A stretch of 64,000 nt of DNA, taken from the IMG/VR virus record IMGVR_UViG_3300029928_000001, positions 114,420 to 178,419 of that record; one strand, written 5' to 3'. Of the stretch, positions 21,681-47,233 are shown piece by piece (the first letter of the stretch is position 1; every line of letters begins with the position of its first letter). The notes beneath the pieces are model-generated. The model was not told the origin of the DNA and made no database searches. It saw only the letters and a list, made by a program, of their open reading frames with translations. The position numbers were made by a program, and so were the translations under genes. The DNA comes from a virus (lineage: Duplodnaviria; Caudoviricetes).

Positions 21681-24600
21681 TTAGTTCATAAAGCTCCAAT
21701 CAGATGCTTTAAAACGTTTTCTTTTCTTTTTATTGTCTTCTTCTTCTTTAATATAATATAAAGCATATTCTACATAATAAATATATATTATAGACTATAT
21801 CTTAATTAAACTGTAATCAGTTTAACCACCACCGCTTCGCATTAAGGAATTTCACCTTAAAGCTACTCCCTTTCGGGATAGTCGTTGGACTTTCCTTATA
21901 ATAAAACTATAAGGCTTAGCACAGGATTCTTTATAAGGTTTGCTTTAATTCCCCTATAACATTCCCCGTTAGCAAATAAGTAAAAACTTATTCACACCCT
22001 GCTTTTACAGGTTCAATGGTGAAGCGCCTAAAGAACTTAAACATGAATTTACAATAATCAACTTACGCTCAAGAACAGTATCAATCGTAGCATTTTTATA
22101 CATATTCGTAAGTATTCTTAAAACATCTTGTTGTCCACTTAATCTAAATTGATAAGTAATTTTACTTTTTACATTTTGTTCTATACTTACTTTGTCTTTT
22201 TGACATAATTTACGAATATCTTGTAGAAAATATTTATTACCAGTCCAAGAAATAGTATATCTATTATTATTTTTTGACCAAGTGATACAACCATCTCCAT
22301 CAAAAAATCCTCTTAAAAAATCCCAAATATATTCTGAATTAATATTAGGCATACGCAATTCTTCAACATAATTTTTGTTAGAAACGCATCCCCAAGCAAT
22401 TAAATCATCATGTAACTAAGAATCTCTAATCGAAAAATCATACATTATACAAGGTTGACTGAAACGATTATCTGTTACTACTGAAATTTTATTATTATAA
22501 GCTCCTATCGCTTGTTTGAATTTTTCTACATGCTCCTAGTCTTTTAATCCTAAAGCTATGGTATTAGTTTTACTACTAACAGTTCCATCAGCATACATAA
22601 AACCTAACCAATAAGCTTTTTCCGAGCTATCTATATTTGTAAAATAATTAGAGTTTCTTGGATAATTACGGATCTTTTTATTAATTATTTCTACATTCAT
22701 TTTTCGCAATAAGTTTCTAATTGCCTATGGCTAAACATTAAATTCACTAGCTAAACTTTTTAATGTTCGATCTTTATCTACATATTCTTGCTTAATATAC
22801 TGCTTTTGGTCCTCTGACCAAATGATTGCTCCAGTGCCTTGTTTACGAGCAATAGTGTATAAATCCATATTAAATTCTCCTTTTCTTTCTTTGACGCAGA
22901 AAATTTATCTTTTTTTATTCCTTTGTTTGCTTGTTTAAGAATAATATTTAAACCTTCATTTTCTTCCTTTAGATTTAACATTTCTTCTTCTAAGATAGAG
23001 GTTAATGTGAATGGACGCAAATATTCAACTCTTTTTTCAGGAGTCATATTTTGTCCAACCTTAGTTCCTAATAATTTAGCTTTCGCAGTTCGTTCATCTA
23101 TTAAGAACTTTATTTTTCCAGAAGATAATTGTGTTTGACAGTTAGCATGAGCTTCAGTATTGATTGGCGCAGTTGCTTTAATAATATACATTACGTCTTC
23201 TTCACATACTTTGCTCTTATACTTCTTATACTCGCCGTCCTTGTCATTCATAACGCCAAAGTCCGGGTATGTTTCATTTGTATCTGGATTAATTTGCGGT
23301 TTTACCATATAATCAATTAAACCGATGCCTACATTTTTTTATTCCATTTAATTCGCTACATTAAACGCGTTCTCTAATGAACTGCTATATATTACTATAT
23401 AGATTAGACTATATCTTCATTAAAAATGCTTTCCGCTTCCAACTATCAATCGCTTATAGTTGTACTCCCTTTCGGGATAGTCGTTGAACCTTTTAATTAA
23501 AATTTATGTCTTTTGTTAAATATACCCAATTATGTTTATTTTTAATGGCGCCTATAGCGTCTGCGCAAACCCCATATTTTTCTCCAATTTCTTTTTGAGT
23601 ATATTTTTTACTTAATAATAATTCAATAATTTCTTTAACATCTTGTTCGGTAAGCTTACTAGCATTATTCTTTTCGCCTTTTTGATTTTTTAATCCAATT
23701 TTATGAGCATGTATAGTATTTTCTTTGCTAGTTACCCACTCTAAATTTGATAAATTATTATTTTGTTTATTACCATCAATATGATTTACTTGTAAATTTT
23801 CCATATTATCTATTGGATAAAAATTTTCTAAAATTAATCTATGAACAGAATATGTATGTCGTCCGTCTTCAGAAATAAGACGCACTTTTTCATACCCATC
23901 TTTATCTAAATGCTTTGACAAAATTTTATTAGTTTTTTCACTATATATATTTCCATTTTCTAAAGCATAATAATCATATTTTAATTTATATTTAGAATTT
24001 ACAATTAATCTTTTTTCCATAAATTTTTAAACCTCCAAAAAAAGTTTTAATTAACTTGGCTGCTGATTACCCTCAACTTTACTTGGTCGGGCTTCCCAGC
24101 AATTCAAAAAGTTTTAAATGGGCTAGACATATTAACCCATTACCGTCAATTACAATTCTCTTCGCTTTATATTTATAATACAATTTTTTTAACCCTATCG
24201 CCTAATCTTCAAAATGCGTGTCTGTCAATGAATAAATATTGACCAAACTTTTTATTGAAGCACCTTGCGGCTGTGGAGTTACTTTAAATACTTCTACAAC
24301 AGTATTGTCTCCCTTACGGCCTACGTCCACCGAAAGAATGTAATAACTACCCTTACCTGAGCGCCCAGAAGCTTCATACTCAGGTTGTTTTAATATTCTA
24401 TGCTTATCAAATGTTTCAGCACTAAAGAAAGCATTTTCCGCAGACCCAGCCCATTTCGATTCATATTCACGAGCAAATGATGTTTCATTAAATGTACCGT
24501 CCATGCGCAAATCATTAACAAAGTTCTTATCAAGCAAATGAACTAAAACAGGTATTTTATAAGTACCACCTAATACCATTGCTTTTTGCGGTTTAACAAT

Positions 24601-26746
24601 TTGCCATACGAGAATTTGAATCAATTTATCATAAGGGAATGAGTTTTTGTAGCCGGCAGTTGTTCATCAATTTTCTGTATAATACGCTACCATTATACAC
24701 GTCTTTTAAAGACTGCTATATATTCCTATATAGATAAGACTATCTCTTCACCTTCAGCTTTACCTGCTAAGGGCCCTCCGCTTCGGTTCGCTTGAACCTA
24801 CTCCCTTTCGGGATAGTCGTTGAACTTTCTAATAATAATATTATTAGCTTAGCTGCTGATTATCCGTTCTGGACTTTTCAGCAATTCAAAGGGTTTACTG
24901 TTACTAATTTCTTAGTAATGATGCTAACTCTTTTTTTTGTTCAAAAGATAATTTTTGATAATCTAACCAATAATCTTTATAAGAATCATGTTTTAAAATT
25001 GTATATAAACTATTACTACTTCCTATTCGTAATTTTTCTATTAACCAAGTTTTTGGCATAATATTAAATTCTTCATTTACATACATCATAAAAACTTGTT
25101 CTTGAGTAAATTTTCTTTTAGAAGAATAAACAGTTGTATGACACTTTAAATCATAAAAATTACTTGATTCAAGAAAAATATTATATAAATCTTTTTTTTG
25201 TTCATCAGACATTTTTTCATACTCTTCAATAATAATTGTATGATTAACTTTACGTTTAATCCGACTAATAGTTGTTCTAGATACTCCAAACATATCTGCT
25301 AACACTTGACCAGGCTTAGAGCAAAATTCTAATGCAGCACAAATGGAAAAAATATCAGTTTTCGTTAACGTACTTCCACCATTAGAAGGTCCAAAATTTC
25401 CGCCTTCGTTTTGATTATATCCATTATAATAACTATCATATAATTTTATATAATATTGTTCTTTTTCACTAATTTCTTCTACGGTTACCTCTCCCGCATA
25501 AATTTCTTCAAAAGAAAAATTTTCTATACCATATATATTGAATTCTTTCTATAAAAAACTATTATCATGTCTATTGCATCTTAAATCTGTAAAATGTCTA
25601 TTTCTTCTTCTTCTTATATTATTTGTTAATCCAATATATTTTTTATGATTGATTAAATTTTCAATTTTATAAATATAATACATAAAATTCACCTCTCTTC
25701 AATAATATCTAAAAAGAAAGATAAATCAATGTTTCACTTTTGTCCAAAAAATTAACATATAACTGCGACTTGTTTAGTTGCTCCTCAGGGTGGGTGGTTC
25801 CATCCATGCAACGTCGCGACACGTTCATCGTAGGTATAATGACCTGGGAGAGTATATCACCGTCAACACCGACACACTCTTCAACAACTCCAGCGTGACG
25901 ACGCTTACCTCTAGACGTCTCTCTTGCGGCAATATTGTCAAAATATGAGCCATTCTTAAACACATATTTTGCGTAATCTTTACCTTCAAGAGTTACTCCT
26001 TTATTCCAGTTTATTTCTTTTTTGAAGGCCGGTATGAGGTTACATATCTCGTCAACCTTCTCCTTCATAATGCCTGCTGCCTATTCTTTACCTCCTGAGG
26101 TCACGAATAATTTACAACGGGGGTAGAGAACACAACGAATCATCAATATCATCATTGCCAGGAATGATTTGGAATCTTTATATTCTATTAAGCTCGCAAA
26201 ACTTAATACGTTTATTAAAAAACTGCTTACAATTTCTTGTAAGAATAGACTATTTCACACTTTTATAATAAAAAGTTCCTCCTTTTCGGTTTAAGGGAAT
26301 CTCACCCGCCCCATTAACTTGGGCCCTACTCCTATTGCCTCTATTTTTATTCCGAGGAGGCTTCTTTCAGGATAGTCGTTGAAGTTTCTTAAGCTTACGC
26401 TCAAGCTTACCTGCGAATTTCCTTAACTAAATTTTAGTCTTAGGTTCAACGCAATTAAAAGGATTTGTCCAAGATTTTACTCCATTGGCGCCATTCACGC
26501 TCTCGGAAAAACACAATAAACATATTGATGACGCGCCGCCGCGCGCAAAAATACTCGTTGATAAAAATAAAATTTAAAATCTTGCGGATTTCCAGATTCT
26601 AAAAGGAAATCAACAAATTTATCTGGATATTCTCTCCAGAGAGAAATATACTATCGAGCAACTGGAATAATTGCCCGAACACGTTCTTCTGATAAACCAA
26701 TTTTTTTCTTAGAATGAGATAAGTCTAATAAATCTTGGAGTGCCAT
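21681..26746 (-). CDS. terL: Terminase large subunit, 5 exons (26497-26746, 25755-26175, 24135-24664, 22894-23331, 21681-21772), 576 aa
   Basis: Spliced product gives Walker A PRAYSKS, RGKRR...VVEE, YVTTAG, LSVDVGR, DGNGLGIGL and KDKFSALEY; exon total 1731 nt = 577 codons. Confidence 0.9.
21773..22893 (-). ncRNA. Group I intron 4 of terL
   Basis: GCG T|...ATG|TA GAA junction; R CAACGACUA, S AAGAUAUAGUCU; IGS GCGC near the end of the HEG. Confidence 0.85.
22005..22868 (-). CDS. Intron-encoded LAGLIDADG homing endonuclease, 287 aa, TAG-recoded
   Basis: YWLGFMYADG and FLRGFFDGDG motifs; at least 4 in-frame TAG; AAGGAG RBS. Confidence 0.85.
23332..24134 (-). ncRNA. Group I intron 3 of terL
   Basis: P1 AUGGGU/GCCCAU; P AAUUGCUGGGAA, Q AAUCAGCAGC, R GUUCAACGACUA, S AAGAUAUAGUCU; terminal G. 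Confidence 0.9.
23493..24020 (-). CDS. Intron-encoded HNH homing endonuclease
   Basis: VHRL...QVNHIDGNKQNNNLSNLEW motif; located between Q and R; no TAG. Confidence 0.9.
   Translation of the reverse strand: MEKRLIVNSKYKLKYDYYALENGNIYSEKTNKILSKHLDKDGYEKVRLISEDGRHTYSVHRLILENFYPIDNMENLQVNHIDGNKQNNNLSNLEWVTSKENTIHAHKIGLKNQKGEKNNASKLTEQDVKEIIELLLSKKYTQKEIGEKYGVCADAIGAIKNKHNWVYLTKDINFN
24665..25754 (-). ncRNA. Group I intron 2 of terL
   Basis: TAT GT|...GATG|A ACA ACT; P1 AUGU-UAA pairs with UUA-GCAU near the HEG 3' end; P2 UUACUAA-GAAA-UUAGUAA; canonical P/Q/R/S. Confidence 0.85.
24901..25683 (-). CDS. Intron-encoded GIY-YIG homing endonuclease, 260 aa
   Basis: MYYIYKIENLINHKKYIGLT...R motif; internal TAG; ends TAG TAA; in frame with 24904-25305. 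Confidence 0.85.
26176..26496 (-). ncRNA. Group I intron 1 of terL (321 nt, no ORF)
   Basis: GCG T|GAAUGGCGC...AAAG|AT TCC; P1 GCGU/GCGC, P10 GAAU/AUUC; R UUCAACGACUA, S AAUAGUCU. Confidence 0.85.
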
Positions 26747-42631: not shown

Positions 42632-43041
42632 ATCATTTACCTCCTGACACTAAATCTAAAAAACATTTTTGTATTTCATCACTCCATTCATAAACCCAAC
42701 AAGTAAACTCCGGCTTTTTAGGATTAGGCAGTTGCGCAACTGGCTTAAACCCTCTCTACTACAAGCCTAAATTAATTTTTAACGAATAAATTATTTTGTT
42801 TGTCATTTGATATTTGTCCTCCTCATACCGTAAAAAACCATAATATAGTTTTTACGACTTAATATTATTAACCCGTAATTATTAAATTTTACGGGTTTTT
42901 TCTTACGATAAAGTATTTTATACTCTATTCTTATTATAACAAAAATTTTACGATTTTGCAAATTCATCGTGAAATCTGTCGCCACTCGTTCTTTATTACG
43001 ACTATGTTGTAACAATCCCCCTTTATTTTTTCTTCCGTAGG
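42136..43041. repeat. Cluster of about 14 TTACG/CGTAA short repeats (iteron-like)
   Basis: About 6 copies in the 3' end of 42083-42631 and about 8 in 42829-43041, e.g. TTTTACGGGTT at ~42242 and ~42887. Confidence 0.5.
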
Positions 43042-43051
43042 ATGAAAAAAT

Positions 43052-43080
43052 AAAAAAATAGGGAGCTTTCGCTCCCTAAA
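43052..43080 (-). terminator. Terminator after fibre cassette
   Basis: TAGGGAGC-tttc-GCTCCCTA plus T-run on minus strand. Confidence 0.75.
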
Positions 43081-43082
43081 AA

Positions 43083-44181
43083 TTAACTCATTCTACTTCT
43101 TATTTCATATACTCCACAAAATTTATAACCCAAACTCGAAAAATCTAATTTACCGGTTACTATATTCTAAACTTTATTAGAATCAGTAGACAAAAAAGTA
43201 TTAATATTATTATTAGTCACCTTATAAGTATCACCATTTAATAAAGTTACTATCATATATACATTTCCAGAAATAACCTAATATAACTAGACCTAAACAA
43301 TTGTTAATTCGTCATATATTACCTTTGTAGGTTCTATTAACGATATTGTGACATTAAAACATTCCTAATATGGAAAAACAATAGTATTTACATCCAAAGG
43401 AAATTGCACCATATCTGTCGGTAAAGTATAATAATTGTCTCCTTCTAATTCAATATAATCTAAATCATATGCACTAAAAAATTCTACATCTTGTTCTTTA
43501 AGAGCTTGAATAGCTGCTGAAGAAAAATTTAATTTTTTCTTTTTATATCCTAAGTTTTTATTGAATAAAATGCTTATTCCATTAAACATATGACTAAAAG
43601 CAAATATGTTACTATTATCAATTTCAGCTTTAATTTGCGGTAATGACTAAAGATTCCACTATCCAGTAAATAATCCGGAATATACCTTTGTATTATTTAC
43701 ATTTTTAGATGGTAAAATTAATTCACTTAAATCGACAATATGTGAAAGATTTGTTAGAGATGCTGAAAACAATTCAGCAAAACAATAATCAGGAGGCTCA
43801 AAACTTTCATCATAAGTATAATGAACTAATGCATTTAAATTACCAGAAATTTTTATATCTAAACCAACAGCATTATATCCTTGAAGTGAGGCAACACGTA
43901 CGCGTAAACAACTAGGACCTTCATTAGAAGAATATAAAGTAGTACCATCTACTCCTCGAATATACACATAAGAAGATTCATTTAAAGATATAGCATCACT
44001 ATCATTAATAAAAAGATCTGTCCATTTAATCGTATCTAAACTATACTGCCATTTTCCATCTCCACAAAATCTTCCTTCAATCACTAAAGGTAATCCATCA
44101 ATACTTTCAAACTTTACCCATTGCGGCAAAGCCTGCATGCCCCCCCCCCTCAGTTTGCACACACGTATTTAAATAAGCCAT
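43083..44181 (-). CDS. Putative receptor-binding/adhesin protein, frameshifted at a G10 tract (44140-44149), TAG-recoded
   Basis: ATG GCT TAT TTA at 44181 is out of frame with 43083-44162 unless the tract is G9 or G12; SGNLNAL...YCFAELF BspA-like motif; downstream frame open with TAG readthrough. Confidence 0.6.
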
Positions 44182-44243
44182 ATATTGTTCACTTCGTTTA
44201 CAACACTTCTTCTGGTTGTAAACTACTCTCCTTTCTAAAAAAA

Positions 44244-45380
44244 TTACAAATACATCAATCTACACCCAAGAAACGCATGAGCATTAGACGCATCATAATT
44301 CACATAACAACAGAACAAGCCCGCACTATCACCGCCAGCCCAATTACCGCCCACACTAGCAAAACAACTCGCATTAACACGACCAGAATCAGGCCAGTAA
44401 GTAGTTGATGAACCACCAGTTTGCTTTCCAACAAAGCCTCCACCATTTGTGCCTTGGAGTTGTTTCATGTATCCACTCATATTTGAAGACAAACCAGAAG
44501 AGGTTGAGAAATCATAATCTAATGCTGTTGTCCCAGTTGTAAAGTTTGATGTTTTAGTTAACAAATTATAACTGCTGTCACAATATAATCCACCTAACCA
44601 CTGGAGTAAATTACCCCATGCATCCTCAAGACCAAATAATTTAACTCTGTCTGTACCACTTGAAGTATTACCATAGCACATACCTTTTTTATTTGTTGCA
44701 CCCGTATTCTATTTTGCTGAACCACTTACATAACCTTTACCCAATGCAGCCTGTGAATTAAGATTACCATATTTAAGCAGATATAAACATTGGATATAAG
44801 CCCATTGATAAAAGCCCATAATATCATAGCCTGAACCTCTCTTTTGTGCCGCAGCTATTGCATCTGTTAAACTTATATTCGTCAATGGCGCAGCATTAGA
44901 AATAGATTGCATTTTATTATTAACTTCATCACTTGCTAAATAAGCTCCAAGATATAAGTAATCCTGTACAACGCCATTCTTTGTAAATGCTCTATATTGA
45001 AATTTAGAATTATTTGGTTCATTTGTAATTGAAACAGTAATAACACTACCACTTGTTGTAATATTAACTCCCATCCTAGGAAATTCTATCATAACATCAT
45101 ACCTATCATCACCAGCATCTTCAATATCATTAGTAGTATTATCTCCATCTTCGTTTTCTGTAAAATCGTTTGGTCTCAAATATGTTTTTATCGTACCCTC
45201 ACACATAATACAAGGTTTATATCCAAATATTTCATCCCATTTATCACTGCCCTTAGTCATACCAACCGCATCATCAGCATATGTACAACAAGTGAGCGGA
45301 TTTGAATTTGACTAATCTATTTTAAGTGTCCAAATTTTGTATTTACTTTTTGATTTTATTTTCTATTTAAAATAAGCCAA
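44244..45380 (-). CDS. Tail fibre/receptor-binding protein with FGE-sulfatase/C-type-lectin-like C-terminus, 378 aa
   Basis: TTG GCT TAT TTT start; 44709-45260 and 44244-44681 joined by TAG; GLEDAWGNLLQW, GGNW...AGLF, LGCRL. Confidence 0.75.
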
Positions 45381-45383
45381 TCC

Positions 45384-46424
45384 TTATTCATACCTCCCTC
45401 GTAAAATAACTATACCCGAGCCGCCATTGCCTGCAACGTAAGCATGTGAATAGTTTCTATTAACAAAACCTCCACCGCCACCGCCTCCTGTATTAGCAGC
45501 TGCATGTATTGTCACATTAGATGAATACCCTCCTTGCGCGCCTCCTCCAGCACCACCGGATCCACCGTAACATTCAACATCTGTTTGCCCATACTGGTCT
45601 GTAGAAACGGCTCCATTGCCACCATTACTGCCGCCAGCACCACCTTTAAAATAAACAGTTGTGTAATTACTACCACTATTAGTGGGCGAACCACCGCCTC
45701 CGCCACCTCCATACAAATTACCATCTACTGCAACTTGAGAAGCTCCAGATCCAGTTCCTGCATCATCACCTGCAGCCGCAGAAGTTAAAGCATAACCCCC
45801 ACCACCACCGCCAGACCCACCATTACCTCCAGATCCTTTGCGATTATAATTTGAACGCTATGCACCGCCACCTCCAGCAGCAGTTAAACCAAACCCGGTG
45901 GAAGCAGCACCATTAGCTCCACTATAGCCATCATTAGAAGCAGTGTCTGTAGATGTGCCGCCCTATCCGCCTGCTCCAATAACAATTGGATAAATGGTGT
46001 TATAATTAAGACTCAAATTTAACTATGTAGTAACATAACCACCGCCTCCACCAGATCCTGCGTAGTCTGTATACTTATAGGTACTAGAGCCACCTCCTCC
46101 TCCACCGACTAATGATACATCTAAATACTTCGTTGTCATATTTTTAATTATTAAATCACCAGAAGTTAAAAGACGCAAAATCCATGTAATACGAGGTTTA
46201 TTCTTTGAATCTAACTCCACGTAATAATTAATAGTAGAATTACCAGTATATGTATATTCAATTGGAAGCCCAAGCTTTACTAATTCATATTCACTTCCGC
46301 TATATTCATTTTCATCATCAGATGTTACAAACCCGATAAAATTGCCGGAAGAATCAAATTGTTGCCACGCATACTATTTAGCCCCCCCCGACTAGTCAAC
46401 GGGTGTCATATTAAAATAAGCCAT
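45384..46424 (-). CDS. Glycine-rich tail fibre/adhesin, 346 aa, in-frame G8 tract
   Basis: ATG GCT TAT TTT; VGGGGGG...VIGAGG...GNGGSGIVILR Gly-rich domain; several TAG. Confidence 0.75.
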
Positions 46425-46777
46425 TATTAATCTACCTCCATATAAGAAAAAATTCTCTATTTTTAGAGAATTTTCTTATCTTTATATTATTTATTCACGT
46501 CCAAAACTGCCGATTTGGTTGCCTTGAAGCGCTTCAGGTCAACTGTTTGCGCCTGTCTATTACTACATTCTTTTATTAACAAAGTTTTTCCTTTTTATTT
46601 ATTATATAACTATTATAATATAATTTTTTTAATTTTTCAAGTCTATTCTTCTCTTGGTTGACAAATTTTAAAAAATAATATATAATAATAATACAAAATA
46701 AAAAAGTGAATTGAATTTCCTGCACTTATTGTGAGCGAATTCAATTCGCGAACAATAAGAAAGGAAAATAGTATACT

Positions 46778-47233
46778 ATGAACAGAGACAATTTATATTC
46801 TCTTCTTTTGGACGCAATGGAAGAATATGGAGTAGACGATATTGTAGGAGTATTAAATAATATCCTCGAAGATATCGAAGTAAAAAACGCTAAAGAAGAA
46901 AGAAAAGCAGCTCAAAAGAAAAAAGATGCAGTAGATCTTTATAAACAAATCCTTCTTTTCTGCAACACTTATTATCCAGAAGTAATCACTGATGAAGAAG
47001 CAGATAAACTTGCGCGAATCGCTGAAGAAAATCCAGAGGTGATTATCAATTCTATGAATTACTACGTTTCTCTTCTTAACGAAGAAGAAGAAACTCCAGT
47101 AGCAACAGAGAAAGCTCCTAAATCTACTATTAAAGTAAAGACTAACATTAATGGCAAAGAAGATAACTTTGAGGTTGATGTAGATAAATGGCTTGATACT
47201 CTTACTGACTTCTTTGATAAATATGGGATTTGA
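46778..47233 (+). CDS. Hypothetical protein
   Basis: 151 aa after the TTGACA/TATAAT promoter at ~46658. Confidence 0.7.
   Translation: MNRDNLYSLLLDAMEEYGVDDIVGVLNNILEDIEVKNAKEERKAAQKKKDAVDLYKQILLFCNTYYPEVITDEEADKLARIAEENPEVIINSMNYYVSLLNEEEETPVATEKAPKSTIKVKTNINGKEDNFEVDVDKWLDTLTDFFDKYGI

Follow-up and report, generated by a model that had tools for sequence, protein, structure and literature searches.

Poly-G tracts behind a short shared leader in a three-gene cassette of a TAG-recoded gut phage: candidate contingency loci in accessory receptor-binding genes

The stretch of DNA considered here (the window) comprises the final 64 kb of the 178,419-bp virus record IMGVR_UViG_3300029928_000001 of IMG/VR, and all coordinates refer to it unless "genome" is stated. 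The source is a large, long-tailed gut phage with Firmicutes-type ribosome-binding sites (RBS). Between 43083 and 46424, on the minus strand of the window, it carries a cassette of three adjacent genes, here called A, B and C, that begin with nearly the same few residues. In two of them this short leader is followed by a homopolymer of G, eight nucleotides long and in frame in gene A, ten long and out of frame in gene C, and near-identical sequences from other assemblies have the C tract at nine G, with the leader and the body of the protein joined. The best reading of these observations would seem to be that the tracts are slipped-strand contingency loci in accessory receptor-binding genes, to which we assign a probability of roughly 0.55. 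The gene models for A, B and C were made with TAG as a sense codon, translated as Q by convention.

Three genes, one leader and two poly-G tracts

Gene A (45384..46424, minus strand, 346 aa) starts at an ATG, begins MAYFNMTPVDQSGGAKQ and has the leader MAYFN. Gene B (44244..45380, minus strand, 378 aa) reads (M)AYFKQKIKS, with one TAG at codon 6, and is without a homopolymer; its start can only be a TTG, because the frame opens directly 3' of the TAA of A and the profile match of the protein, described below, starts at residue 8. In gene C the leader and the body lie in two frames. The leader open reading frame (ORF; 44107..44181, minus strand) starts at ATG 44181 with MAYLNTCVQTEGGG, has the leader MAYLN and, with the tract at G10, ends after 24 codons at TGA 44107-44109; the body is open over 43083..44162 on the same strand and, counted from an internal ATG at 44138 (43083..44138), comprises 351 aa with seven TAG codons. 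The 10-mer TGGCTTATTT occurs four times in the window, three of these copies being at the starts of A, B and C. A preliminary description of this DNA had reported three adjacent adhesin-like genes that all begin M-A-Y-F/L and have unrelated bodies, and with TAG as sense both statements stand: the starts are MAYFN, (TTG)AYFK and MAYLN, and BLASTP finds no significant match between the bodies (A against B, best E 0.6; C against A or B, no match at E<=10). A and B share a reading frame (45381-45386), with only TAA GGA between them and then the TTG of B, which is probably a coincidence. A fusion of the two by read-through of the TAA was considered and rejected, as homologs of A terminate at the same ...GIVI(L/I)RGRY motif.

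The G8 tract of A (46382-46389, minus strand) occupies codons 12-15 in frame, TCG GGG GGG GCT, and encodes the Gly-Gly of ...QSGGAK.... The G10 tract of C (44140-44149, minus strand) lies between leader and body and is out of frame, and either G9 or G12 would join the two, as the preliminary description had correctly stated. These are the only G/C runs of at least seven in the 64-kb window. Both show one hallmark of a contingency locus, a G/C tract of about seven or more inside a reading frame, here at codons 11-15 of A and C. Counted over the whole genome, G/C runs number 36 of length 5, one of length 6, none of length 7, three of length 8 and one of length 10, so that the distribution shows a gap at the place of the expected random tail. 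Block shuffling of the genome, repeated 200 times, gave 0.355 runs of at least eight on average against the four observed, although four were also reached in one shuffle or more. On the coding strand each of the four reads as G, and each is among the first 41 codons of a gene in the cassette or in the main fibre block. The tracts are non-random. Within gene A, which encodes 87 glycines, the six poly-Gly stretches of the body use a mixture of GGT, GGA and GGC, the longest G run among them being five, and GGG GGG is used for the Gly-Gly of the leader only.

The other two tracts, both G8 on the coding strand, are in the 5' parts of two genes of the main fibre block (genome 79430-79437, L005:3431-3438; and genome 79699-79706, L005:3700-3707). 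One of them is in frame, in a protein of 90 aa (...FGGGD...). The other is out of frame and cuts the leader MDIIKTNDKQ...VIEGG off from a frame of 211 codons (190 aa from an internal ATG); G9 would restore this frame. Two homologs of this MDIIK gene, P0003 and P0004 (72-73% identical, 221 aa), carry a corresponding MDIIK-type leader in frame as protein, and the long form of the gene is therefore ancestral.

Tract length and reading frame in other assemblies and other phages

Tract lengths were compared between assembled sequences, namely this record, the metagenome contigs L003 and L004 (which are different assemblies) and database proteins. A pattern search of metagenome contigs found the C tract, G10 here, as G9 and in frame in both L003 and L004. 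L003 is 99.1% identical to window 44025-45431 over 1,407 aligned nt, and the sole indel is the C tract; L004 is 99.7% identical to window 43017-44202 over 1,186 nt, with two indels, the C tract and an intergenic A run. A search with the body of C returned one protein cluster, P0001, with 30 member sequences. It is the in-frame G9 form of C (365 aa, 99% identical), starting MAYLNTCVQTEGGGM and also given as MAYLNTCVQTEGGGMQALPQ, and the C leader that is fused in frame to the body in P0001 is the same as in L003 and L004. Gene C thereby shows the second hallmark of a contingency locus, a tract whose length differs between near-identical genomes and toggles the frame, and it is the sole coding indel. 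The cassette found no match by blastn among 50,697 phage records, and IMG/VR searches with peptide patterns for C and B, and with a pattern around the C tract, found none either.

In gene A the corresponding region of L003 is 1 nt shorter, the leader running into a stop and the body going on in another frame. A database protein from a contig of 178,304 bp (P0005) matches A exactly, and in frame, over its first 63 residues and then diverges in a Gly-rich part; L003 carries this same allele of A. From these tract states it follows that the present record is A on and C off, while L003 is C on and apparently A off. The slipped-strand phase variation that the preliminary description had proposed thus receives comparative support, in C from G10 here against G9 in all three other sequences, and in A from a frame that is intact here and in P0005 and broken in L003. 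We infer that such length differences arise by replication slippage at a high rate.

The same alignments revealed two further features of the cassette. The Gly-rich middle of A (45432-46089 against L003:1407-1983) cannot be aligned as DNA, and its flanks are 96-99% identical; this middle would appear to be a replaced or fast-evolving receptor-binding part. The similarity of L004 to this genome stops at 43017, just past the terminator of gene C, and the next 1.5 kb of L004 have no match in the genome, making window 43017 an apparent mosaic boundary.

This design is also present in unrelated phages of IMG/VR, where a leader of the type M-I-F-N precedes runs of G8-G10. Searching that collection for MIFN with a run of at least G8 no more than 30 nt behind it yielded 15 matches at 13 loci. 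A strong AAGGAGG-type RBS accompanies nine of these matches (seven loci), three of them in frame and six out of frame, and in each of the six out-of-frame genes another frame is open over 67-102 codons. Between the contigs L009, L015 and L017, alignments of 494-544 nt are 100% identical apart from the length of the run (G9, G10 and G9, respectively), a result whose weight is limited by their origin from one dataset. L011 and L018 are 56-58% identical to these three overall, yet a junction of ~150 nt is conserved, which extends from the end of the upstream gene over the RBS to the leader and its run. The positive loci (these five together with L006 and L010) are tandem arrays of three to five small genes, encoding 80-130 aa, that start MIFN, MAIFN, MMIFN, MIYN, MIAN or MIMN; many of them carry a poly-G run, which is in frame in some and out of frame in others. 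The arrays follow fibre genes, collagen-like or other, and at most of the loci they precede holin-like genes. Their proteins belong to no Pfam or PHROG family, and those at L009, L011 and L018 have a conserved C-terminal tail, ...LLAWLQxNAVKQ. As a control, the same scan with C runs gave five loci, L021 being gene-like and L023 perhaps so; C runs behind this leader therefore do occur, less often than G runs. A scan of IMG/VR for MAY(L/F)N followed by G7 or longer found ten loci (L029-L038), but these form one family without an RBS and with frames of 17-25 codons, and they were judged to be an unrelated design. Common to all ten is ATGGCCTATTTGAACCTCACCGTG followed by G8 or G9, a conserved element with a variable G run.

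It could be argued that the G10 of gene C is an assembly or sequencing error, the true tract being G9, the gene intact and the G runs merely Gly codons. Several platforms are prone to errors in G homopolymers of 9-10, and all three other observations of C are indeed in frame. However, two of the four G tracts of the genome break their frames, and they do so in opposite directions (C has to lose a G and the MDIIK gene to gain one), in contrast to the A/T runs that serve as an assembly control: of 34 such runs of at least eight in the genome, 19 are inside ORFs of at least 150 codons that stay open, two of them in the tape-measure gene. Such an error also fails to account for the mixture of on and off states among the RBS-bearing MIFN genes, which come from contigs of other datasets, and for the restriction of GGG GGG to leaders within a gene that otherwise avoids G runs. 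An error in the C tract therefore strikes us as unlikely, and slipped-strand switching remains the better account of the lengths.

Alternatively, the sequence could be correct and the start of translation fixed and internal. Translation of C would then begin at ATG 44138, for which the G run (GAGGGG...) would be the Shine-Dalgarno sequence, and the MAYL mini-ORF would be a remnant or a regulatory upstream ORF; the MDIIK gene would likewise be read from its internal ATG. Two observations support this and to that extent weigh against a switch. First, ATG 44138 is situated 8 nt after a GAGG. Second, the sole near-identical database entry for the MDIIK gene is the 190-aa internal-start form (11 members, from 9 contigs, the longest of 182,544 bp), and among the database entries the in-frame form of this tract is not seen in this lineage. 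Moreover, the MAYL ATG has only a weak Shine-Dalgarno sequence nearby; a good one, AAAGGAG, is 40 nt upstream, and a 9-bp hairpin (GTTTACAAC...GTTGTAAAC, 44196..44223, minus strand) lies between this site and the ATG of gene C. Against this, the leader of C is in frame in L003, L004 and P0001, that of A is identical and in frame in P0005, the MDIIK-type leader is conserved as protein in P0003 and P0004, and the leader type recurs in 36 of the 120 listed homologs of A. A start that is always internal is thus quite improbable in our opinion; it may nevertheless be that out-of-frame C is still made, leaderless, from ATG 44138.

The prevalence of out-of-frame states (six of the nine MIFN genes, two of the four tracts here and the MDIIK gene on 9 contigs) would be odd for a needed gene, and it raises the possibility of programmed slippage: the RNA polymerase of phage or host, or the ribosome, would slip on the G run and yield a fixed mix of products from each template, the differences in DNA length being secondary. 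However, known transcriptional slippage uses A/T runs, and slippage at the level of RNA does not require what is seen here, namely DNA lengths that differ between otherwise identical sequences; a stimulatory structure was looked for by one minimum-free-energy (MFE) fold only. Programmed slippage appears to us just as improbable as an invariant internal start, and we continue to favour contingency loci that switch by slippage of the replicating strand.

The encoded proteins, their leader and their genomic setting

The "Gly-rich" label that the preliminary description had given to A proved to be well founded. The protein matches the Pfam family PF21722 (Gly_rich_2) over residues 98-342, with 67.1 bits against a curated cut-off of 24.3, and its fold resembles solved glycine-rich fibre and tail-tip proteins. 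The AlphaFold2 model (mean predicted local distance difference test, pLDDT, 85.7; predicted template-modelling score, pTM, 0.84) has a TNF-like beta-sandwich and a glycine-rich domain after the leader; in Foldseek it is closest to the tail tip of Bxb1 (9d93_Qa, E 3.4e-6), then to the fibre of Pam3 (7ypx_A, E 3.4e-4) and after these to the glycine-rich domains of ALK/LTK. The model is without a helix, and its residues 1-50 form short strands or coil (pLDDT 51-77).

Gene B matches phrog_5302, "tail protein", at 2.7e-61, from residue 8 onwards, and tblastn matched it to 24 phage records. In all three of the records that were inspected the match to B sits within a longer protein, in a place where a receptor-binding protein would be encoded. 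The homolog is directly after a baseplate protein in a Bacillus phage and directly after the baseplate protein BppU in a Clostridioides phage; in Butyrivibrio phage Idris it comes after the tail genes and adjoins a reverse transcriptase. In this last phage (L026, MN882554.2) the homolog is ~400 nt upstream of the putative reverse transcriptase gene, and its B-type domain may be the target of a diversity-generating retroelement. For gene B itself a role as the variable protein of such an element was rejected, there being no template repeat: by blastn the last 317 nt of B match only themselves in the genome.

Residues ~15-215 of gene C form a domain found in 45 hits among 1.84 billion representatives (phmmer), and in four of the 15 remote homologs scanned an LRR_5 match lies behind this shared domain. 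The body of C and P0001 match no Pfam family at E<=0.1, and hence no LRR_5, and C is also without a PHROG family; its AlphaFold2 model is partly confident (pLDDT 57) and has no Foldseek match at E<=0.001. The N-terminal beta-domain of C thus appears, from sequence, to be one that is common to proteins with BspA-type leucine-rich repeats (LRR). The "BspA-like" label of the preliminary description accordingly holds indirectly, through the remote homologs, and does not hold for repeats in C itself. Sequence searches of the PDB with A, B and C gave nothing convincing, the best match being 5vf4 for B (E 0.038). Overall, the matches and models suggest that A is of fibre or adhesin type and B of tail or receptor-binding type, that all three proteins are heads without the N-terminal anchor domains that are usual, and that they would be parts of the virion that bind receptors.

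In view of such unrelated bodies, the leader that they have in common deserves closer attention. A start of the type M-(M)-(A)-[IY]-[FIAVYML]-[NK] (for example MIFN, MIIN, MIAN or MAIVN) is present in the aforementioned 36 of the 120 listed Gly_rich_2 homologs of A, and a GG within the first 20 residues in 63 of them; the consensus of an alignment of 62 homologs begins MIxNxxxGG. This frequency, together with its presence on unrelated proteins, implies that the leader is of a widespread type that is placed on unrelated bodies. On the other hand, none of the 44 remote homologs of C starts in this way. In a Pfam scan of 17 tail and fibre proteins of the genome the matches were confined to LRR_5, DUF6273, ALK_LTK_GRD and, weakly, a T7 tail-fibre family, and included no branching or docking domain, although a divergent one could escape such a scan. 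The common anchor peptide of the preliminary description is plausible on account of the homologs of A and the small phage proteins that bear a related leader, and lacks a counterpart in the remote homologs of C and a recognizable docking partner. That the leader is a tag attaching the heads to the virion is a possibility we take seriously, while thinking it rather less probable than the opposite.

The mechanism that we envisage would operate as follows. A, B and C would constitute a single unit, from promoter to terminator, whose products are accessory receptor-binding heads of three unrelated folds. The first few residues of each are a leader of the type M-(A)-[I/Y]-[F/L]-[N/K], behind which A and C would have a Gly-Gly(-Gly) linker encoded as a G homopolymer, and the gain or loss of one G in replication would join or separate leader and body. 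Progeny populations would then carry different subsets of heads, and a leaderless C would not be mounted if the leader is a mounting tag. The TAG codons would tie translation of the cassette to the late, suppressor-dependent phase of infection. A bolder version would see here a plug-in system of many uncultured phages with Gram-positive-type RBS, in which M-(A)-[I/Y]-[F/L/I]-N is a universal docking tag, the heads and the arrays of small proteins (80-130 aa) share a site on the tail, the poly-G run is a Gly linker that gives each burst its combinatorial subset of heads, and the junction is a recombination point for cassette swaps; this we regard as speculative and on the whole doubtful.

Besides the two points that favour an internal start, several others weigh against such a mechanism. 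The length evidence consists of differences between assemblies, as opposed to mixtures within one population, and the coverage of L003 and L004, judged by their contig names, is ~3x. The change at the A tract in L003 is a substitution plus a deletion, and no clean change of length. Gene B has the leader yet no tract. As for the leader itself, its identical part comprises only 4-5 residues (A and C have some 25 that are similar), the first ten residues of the A model have a pLDDT of 52, and the Pfam scan just described gave no docking domain. Lastly, five of the nine RBS-bearing MIFN matches come from one dataset. With these reservations, the observations of the preliminary description are confirmed and its interpretation is partly supported.

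The use of TAG as a sense codon is supported by the reading frames. Reading through TAG raises the coverage of the window by ORFs of at least 150 codons from 30.3 to 45.1 kb, and treating TGA as sense brings no comparable gain in this measure. In-frame TAG codons number five in A, three in B and seven in C. Outside the window, within a cluster of nine tRNA genes, there is a tRNA with a CTA anticodon (genome 9907-9978), which is likely to be an amber suppressor, and the genome also has an RF2-like gene. In-frame TAG codons and a CTA tRNA are both present, and the late genes of this phage are read with TAG coding for an amino acid. PHROG matches identify a late module on the minus strand, with a tape measure of 2,730 aa, portal, terminase pieces and a sigma factor, which extends beyond the window into a large region of tail-tip and fibre genes (genome 76-114 kb). 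In this module the terminase-like pieces at 22008-26155 alternate with three endonuclease genes ("endonuclease" family, HNH and GIY-YIG homing types), which suggests that the terminase gene has been split by mobile elements. The set of fibre-type proteins is unusually large. A further tail protein of 2,496 aa (genome 90003-97490, L027:3-7490) has a C-terminal, near-threshold match to a BspA-type LRR (25.9 bits against a cut-off of 27.7).

The cassette is also bracketed by candidate expression signals. A sigma-70-like promoter (TTGAAA-17-TATAAT, 11/12) is at 46612..46640 on the minus strand, ~190 nt upstream of A, and back to back with it, within 46612-46686, is an opposing one on the plus strand (12/12 matches) for a gene at 46778; both are consensus matches only. 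An MFE fold of 46420-46615 places an AT-rich hairpin followed by a U-rich sequence (46446..46476, minus strand) in the leader RNA, just 5' of the ribosome-binding site of A. This hairpin is terminator-like, and together with the promoters it makes antitermination control of a late unit possible. Directly 3' of gene C, at 43059..43078 on the minus strand, a hairpin with a T run resembles an intrinsic terminator. A switch by DNA inversion was considered and rejected, as the neighbouring gene at 42086-42739 matches only the C-terminal helix-turn-helix part of an invertase family.

Comparison with known systems

A central gap for both microbiome ecology and phage therapy is the host range of gut phages. 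If the tracts do switch, mutational bet-hedging of receptor-binding proteins would extend from Campylobacter phages to a recoded gut phage and to several uncultured phages. It would also explain many of the "frameshifted" fibre genes in metagenome assemblies, and annotators would be warned against discarding or silently repairing them. If, moreover, the leader is a docking tag, it would be a compact handle for mounting new binding heads on a phage tail, and how heads without anchor domains are mounted would become a testable question.

The closest parallel is the Fletchervirus group of Campylobacter, in which poly-G tracts of 7-11 G are situated in receptor-binding proteins and a change of length produces subpopulations with different receptor use (Sorensen et al. 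2021, as summarised in bioRxiv 10.1101/2025.10.21.683753; the paper, Cell Rep 35:109214, is also in the reference lists of PMC10877375 and PMC12823448). The likeness lies in G homopolymers, here of 8-10 G, in genes of receptor-binding type, and in their varying length, here between assemblies. The differences are nonetheless considerable. This is a TAG-recoded phage of 178 kb and not a Campylobacter myovirus; its tracts are at a fixed place behind a conserved short leader, where they encode a Gly linker, and a single cassette has several unrelated heads. Whereas a receptor-use phenotype has been described for Fletchervirus, the phage considered here is known from assembled sequence alone.

In T2, T4 and other coliphages, homopolymer repeats have been described as giving reversible frameshifts by polymerase slippage, and these are seen as bet-hedging (Gomez, Barrick and Waters; bioRxiv 10.1101/2025.10.21.683753). 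According to the same preprint, repeats of at least six are under-represented in the tail fibres of the BASEL coliphages (0.77x), unlike the situation here, where the accessory cassette and the main block of fibre genes hold all four long G runs.

With respect to the mounting of the heads, the Klebsiella phages KP32 and K11 are described as having a second receptor-binding protein that is without an anchor domain and docks on a different tail protein by a short conserved N-terminal peptide, with free exchange of the heads (PMC13579863). The docking peptide of KP32 is ~35 aa long, by this account, and binds a T4gp10-like domain; that of the present cassette would be MAY(F/L)(N/K), with 4-5 identical residues. 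A T4gp10-like branching domain of the KP32/K11 type was not found by Pfam on the 17 tail and fibre proteins, where a divergent one could escape. Glycine-rich fibre tips, for their part, are described in cyanophage Pam3 (gp24) and Salmonella phage S16 (gp38) (PMC9608196), and the model of gene A matches by Foldseek both Pam3 gp24 and chain Q of the Bxb1 tail tip (PDB 9d93). Pam3 gp24 is reported to dock via an N-terminal alpha-helical bundle (PMC9608196), whereas gene A has no such bundle and has instead a short leader and a small beta region of lower confidence.

Other routes by which phages vary their fibres are the inversion of the Mu G segment and the diversity-generating retroelements (PMC12823448). 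The cassette would share with these a diversification of host recognition at the level of the population. It differs from them in that the switch would be a frameshift; neither an invertase with a catalytic domain nor a template repeat for gene B was found. In the literature that we searched, which left subscription journals mostly aside, neither a poly-G switch in a recoded or gut phage nor a leader of the MIFN type is described. The class of mechanism is therefore a known one, for phages mainly from Campylobacter viruses, and what would be new is the fixed placement of the tract behind a leader and as a Gly linker, the multi-head cassette and the lineage.

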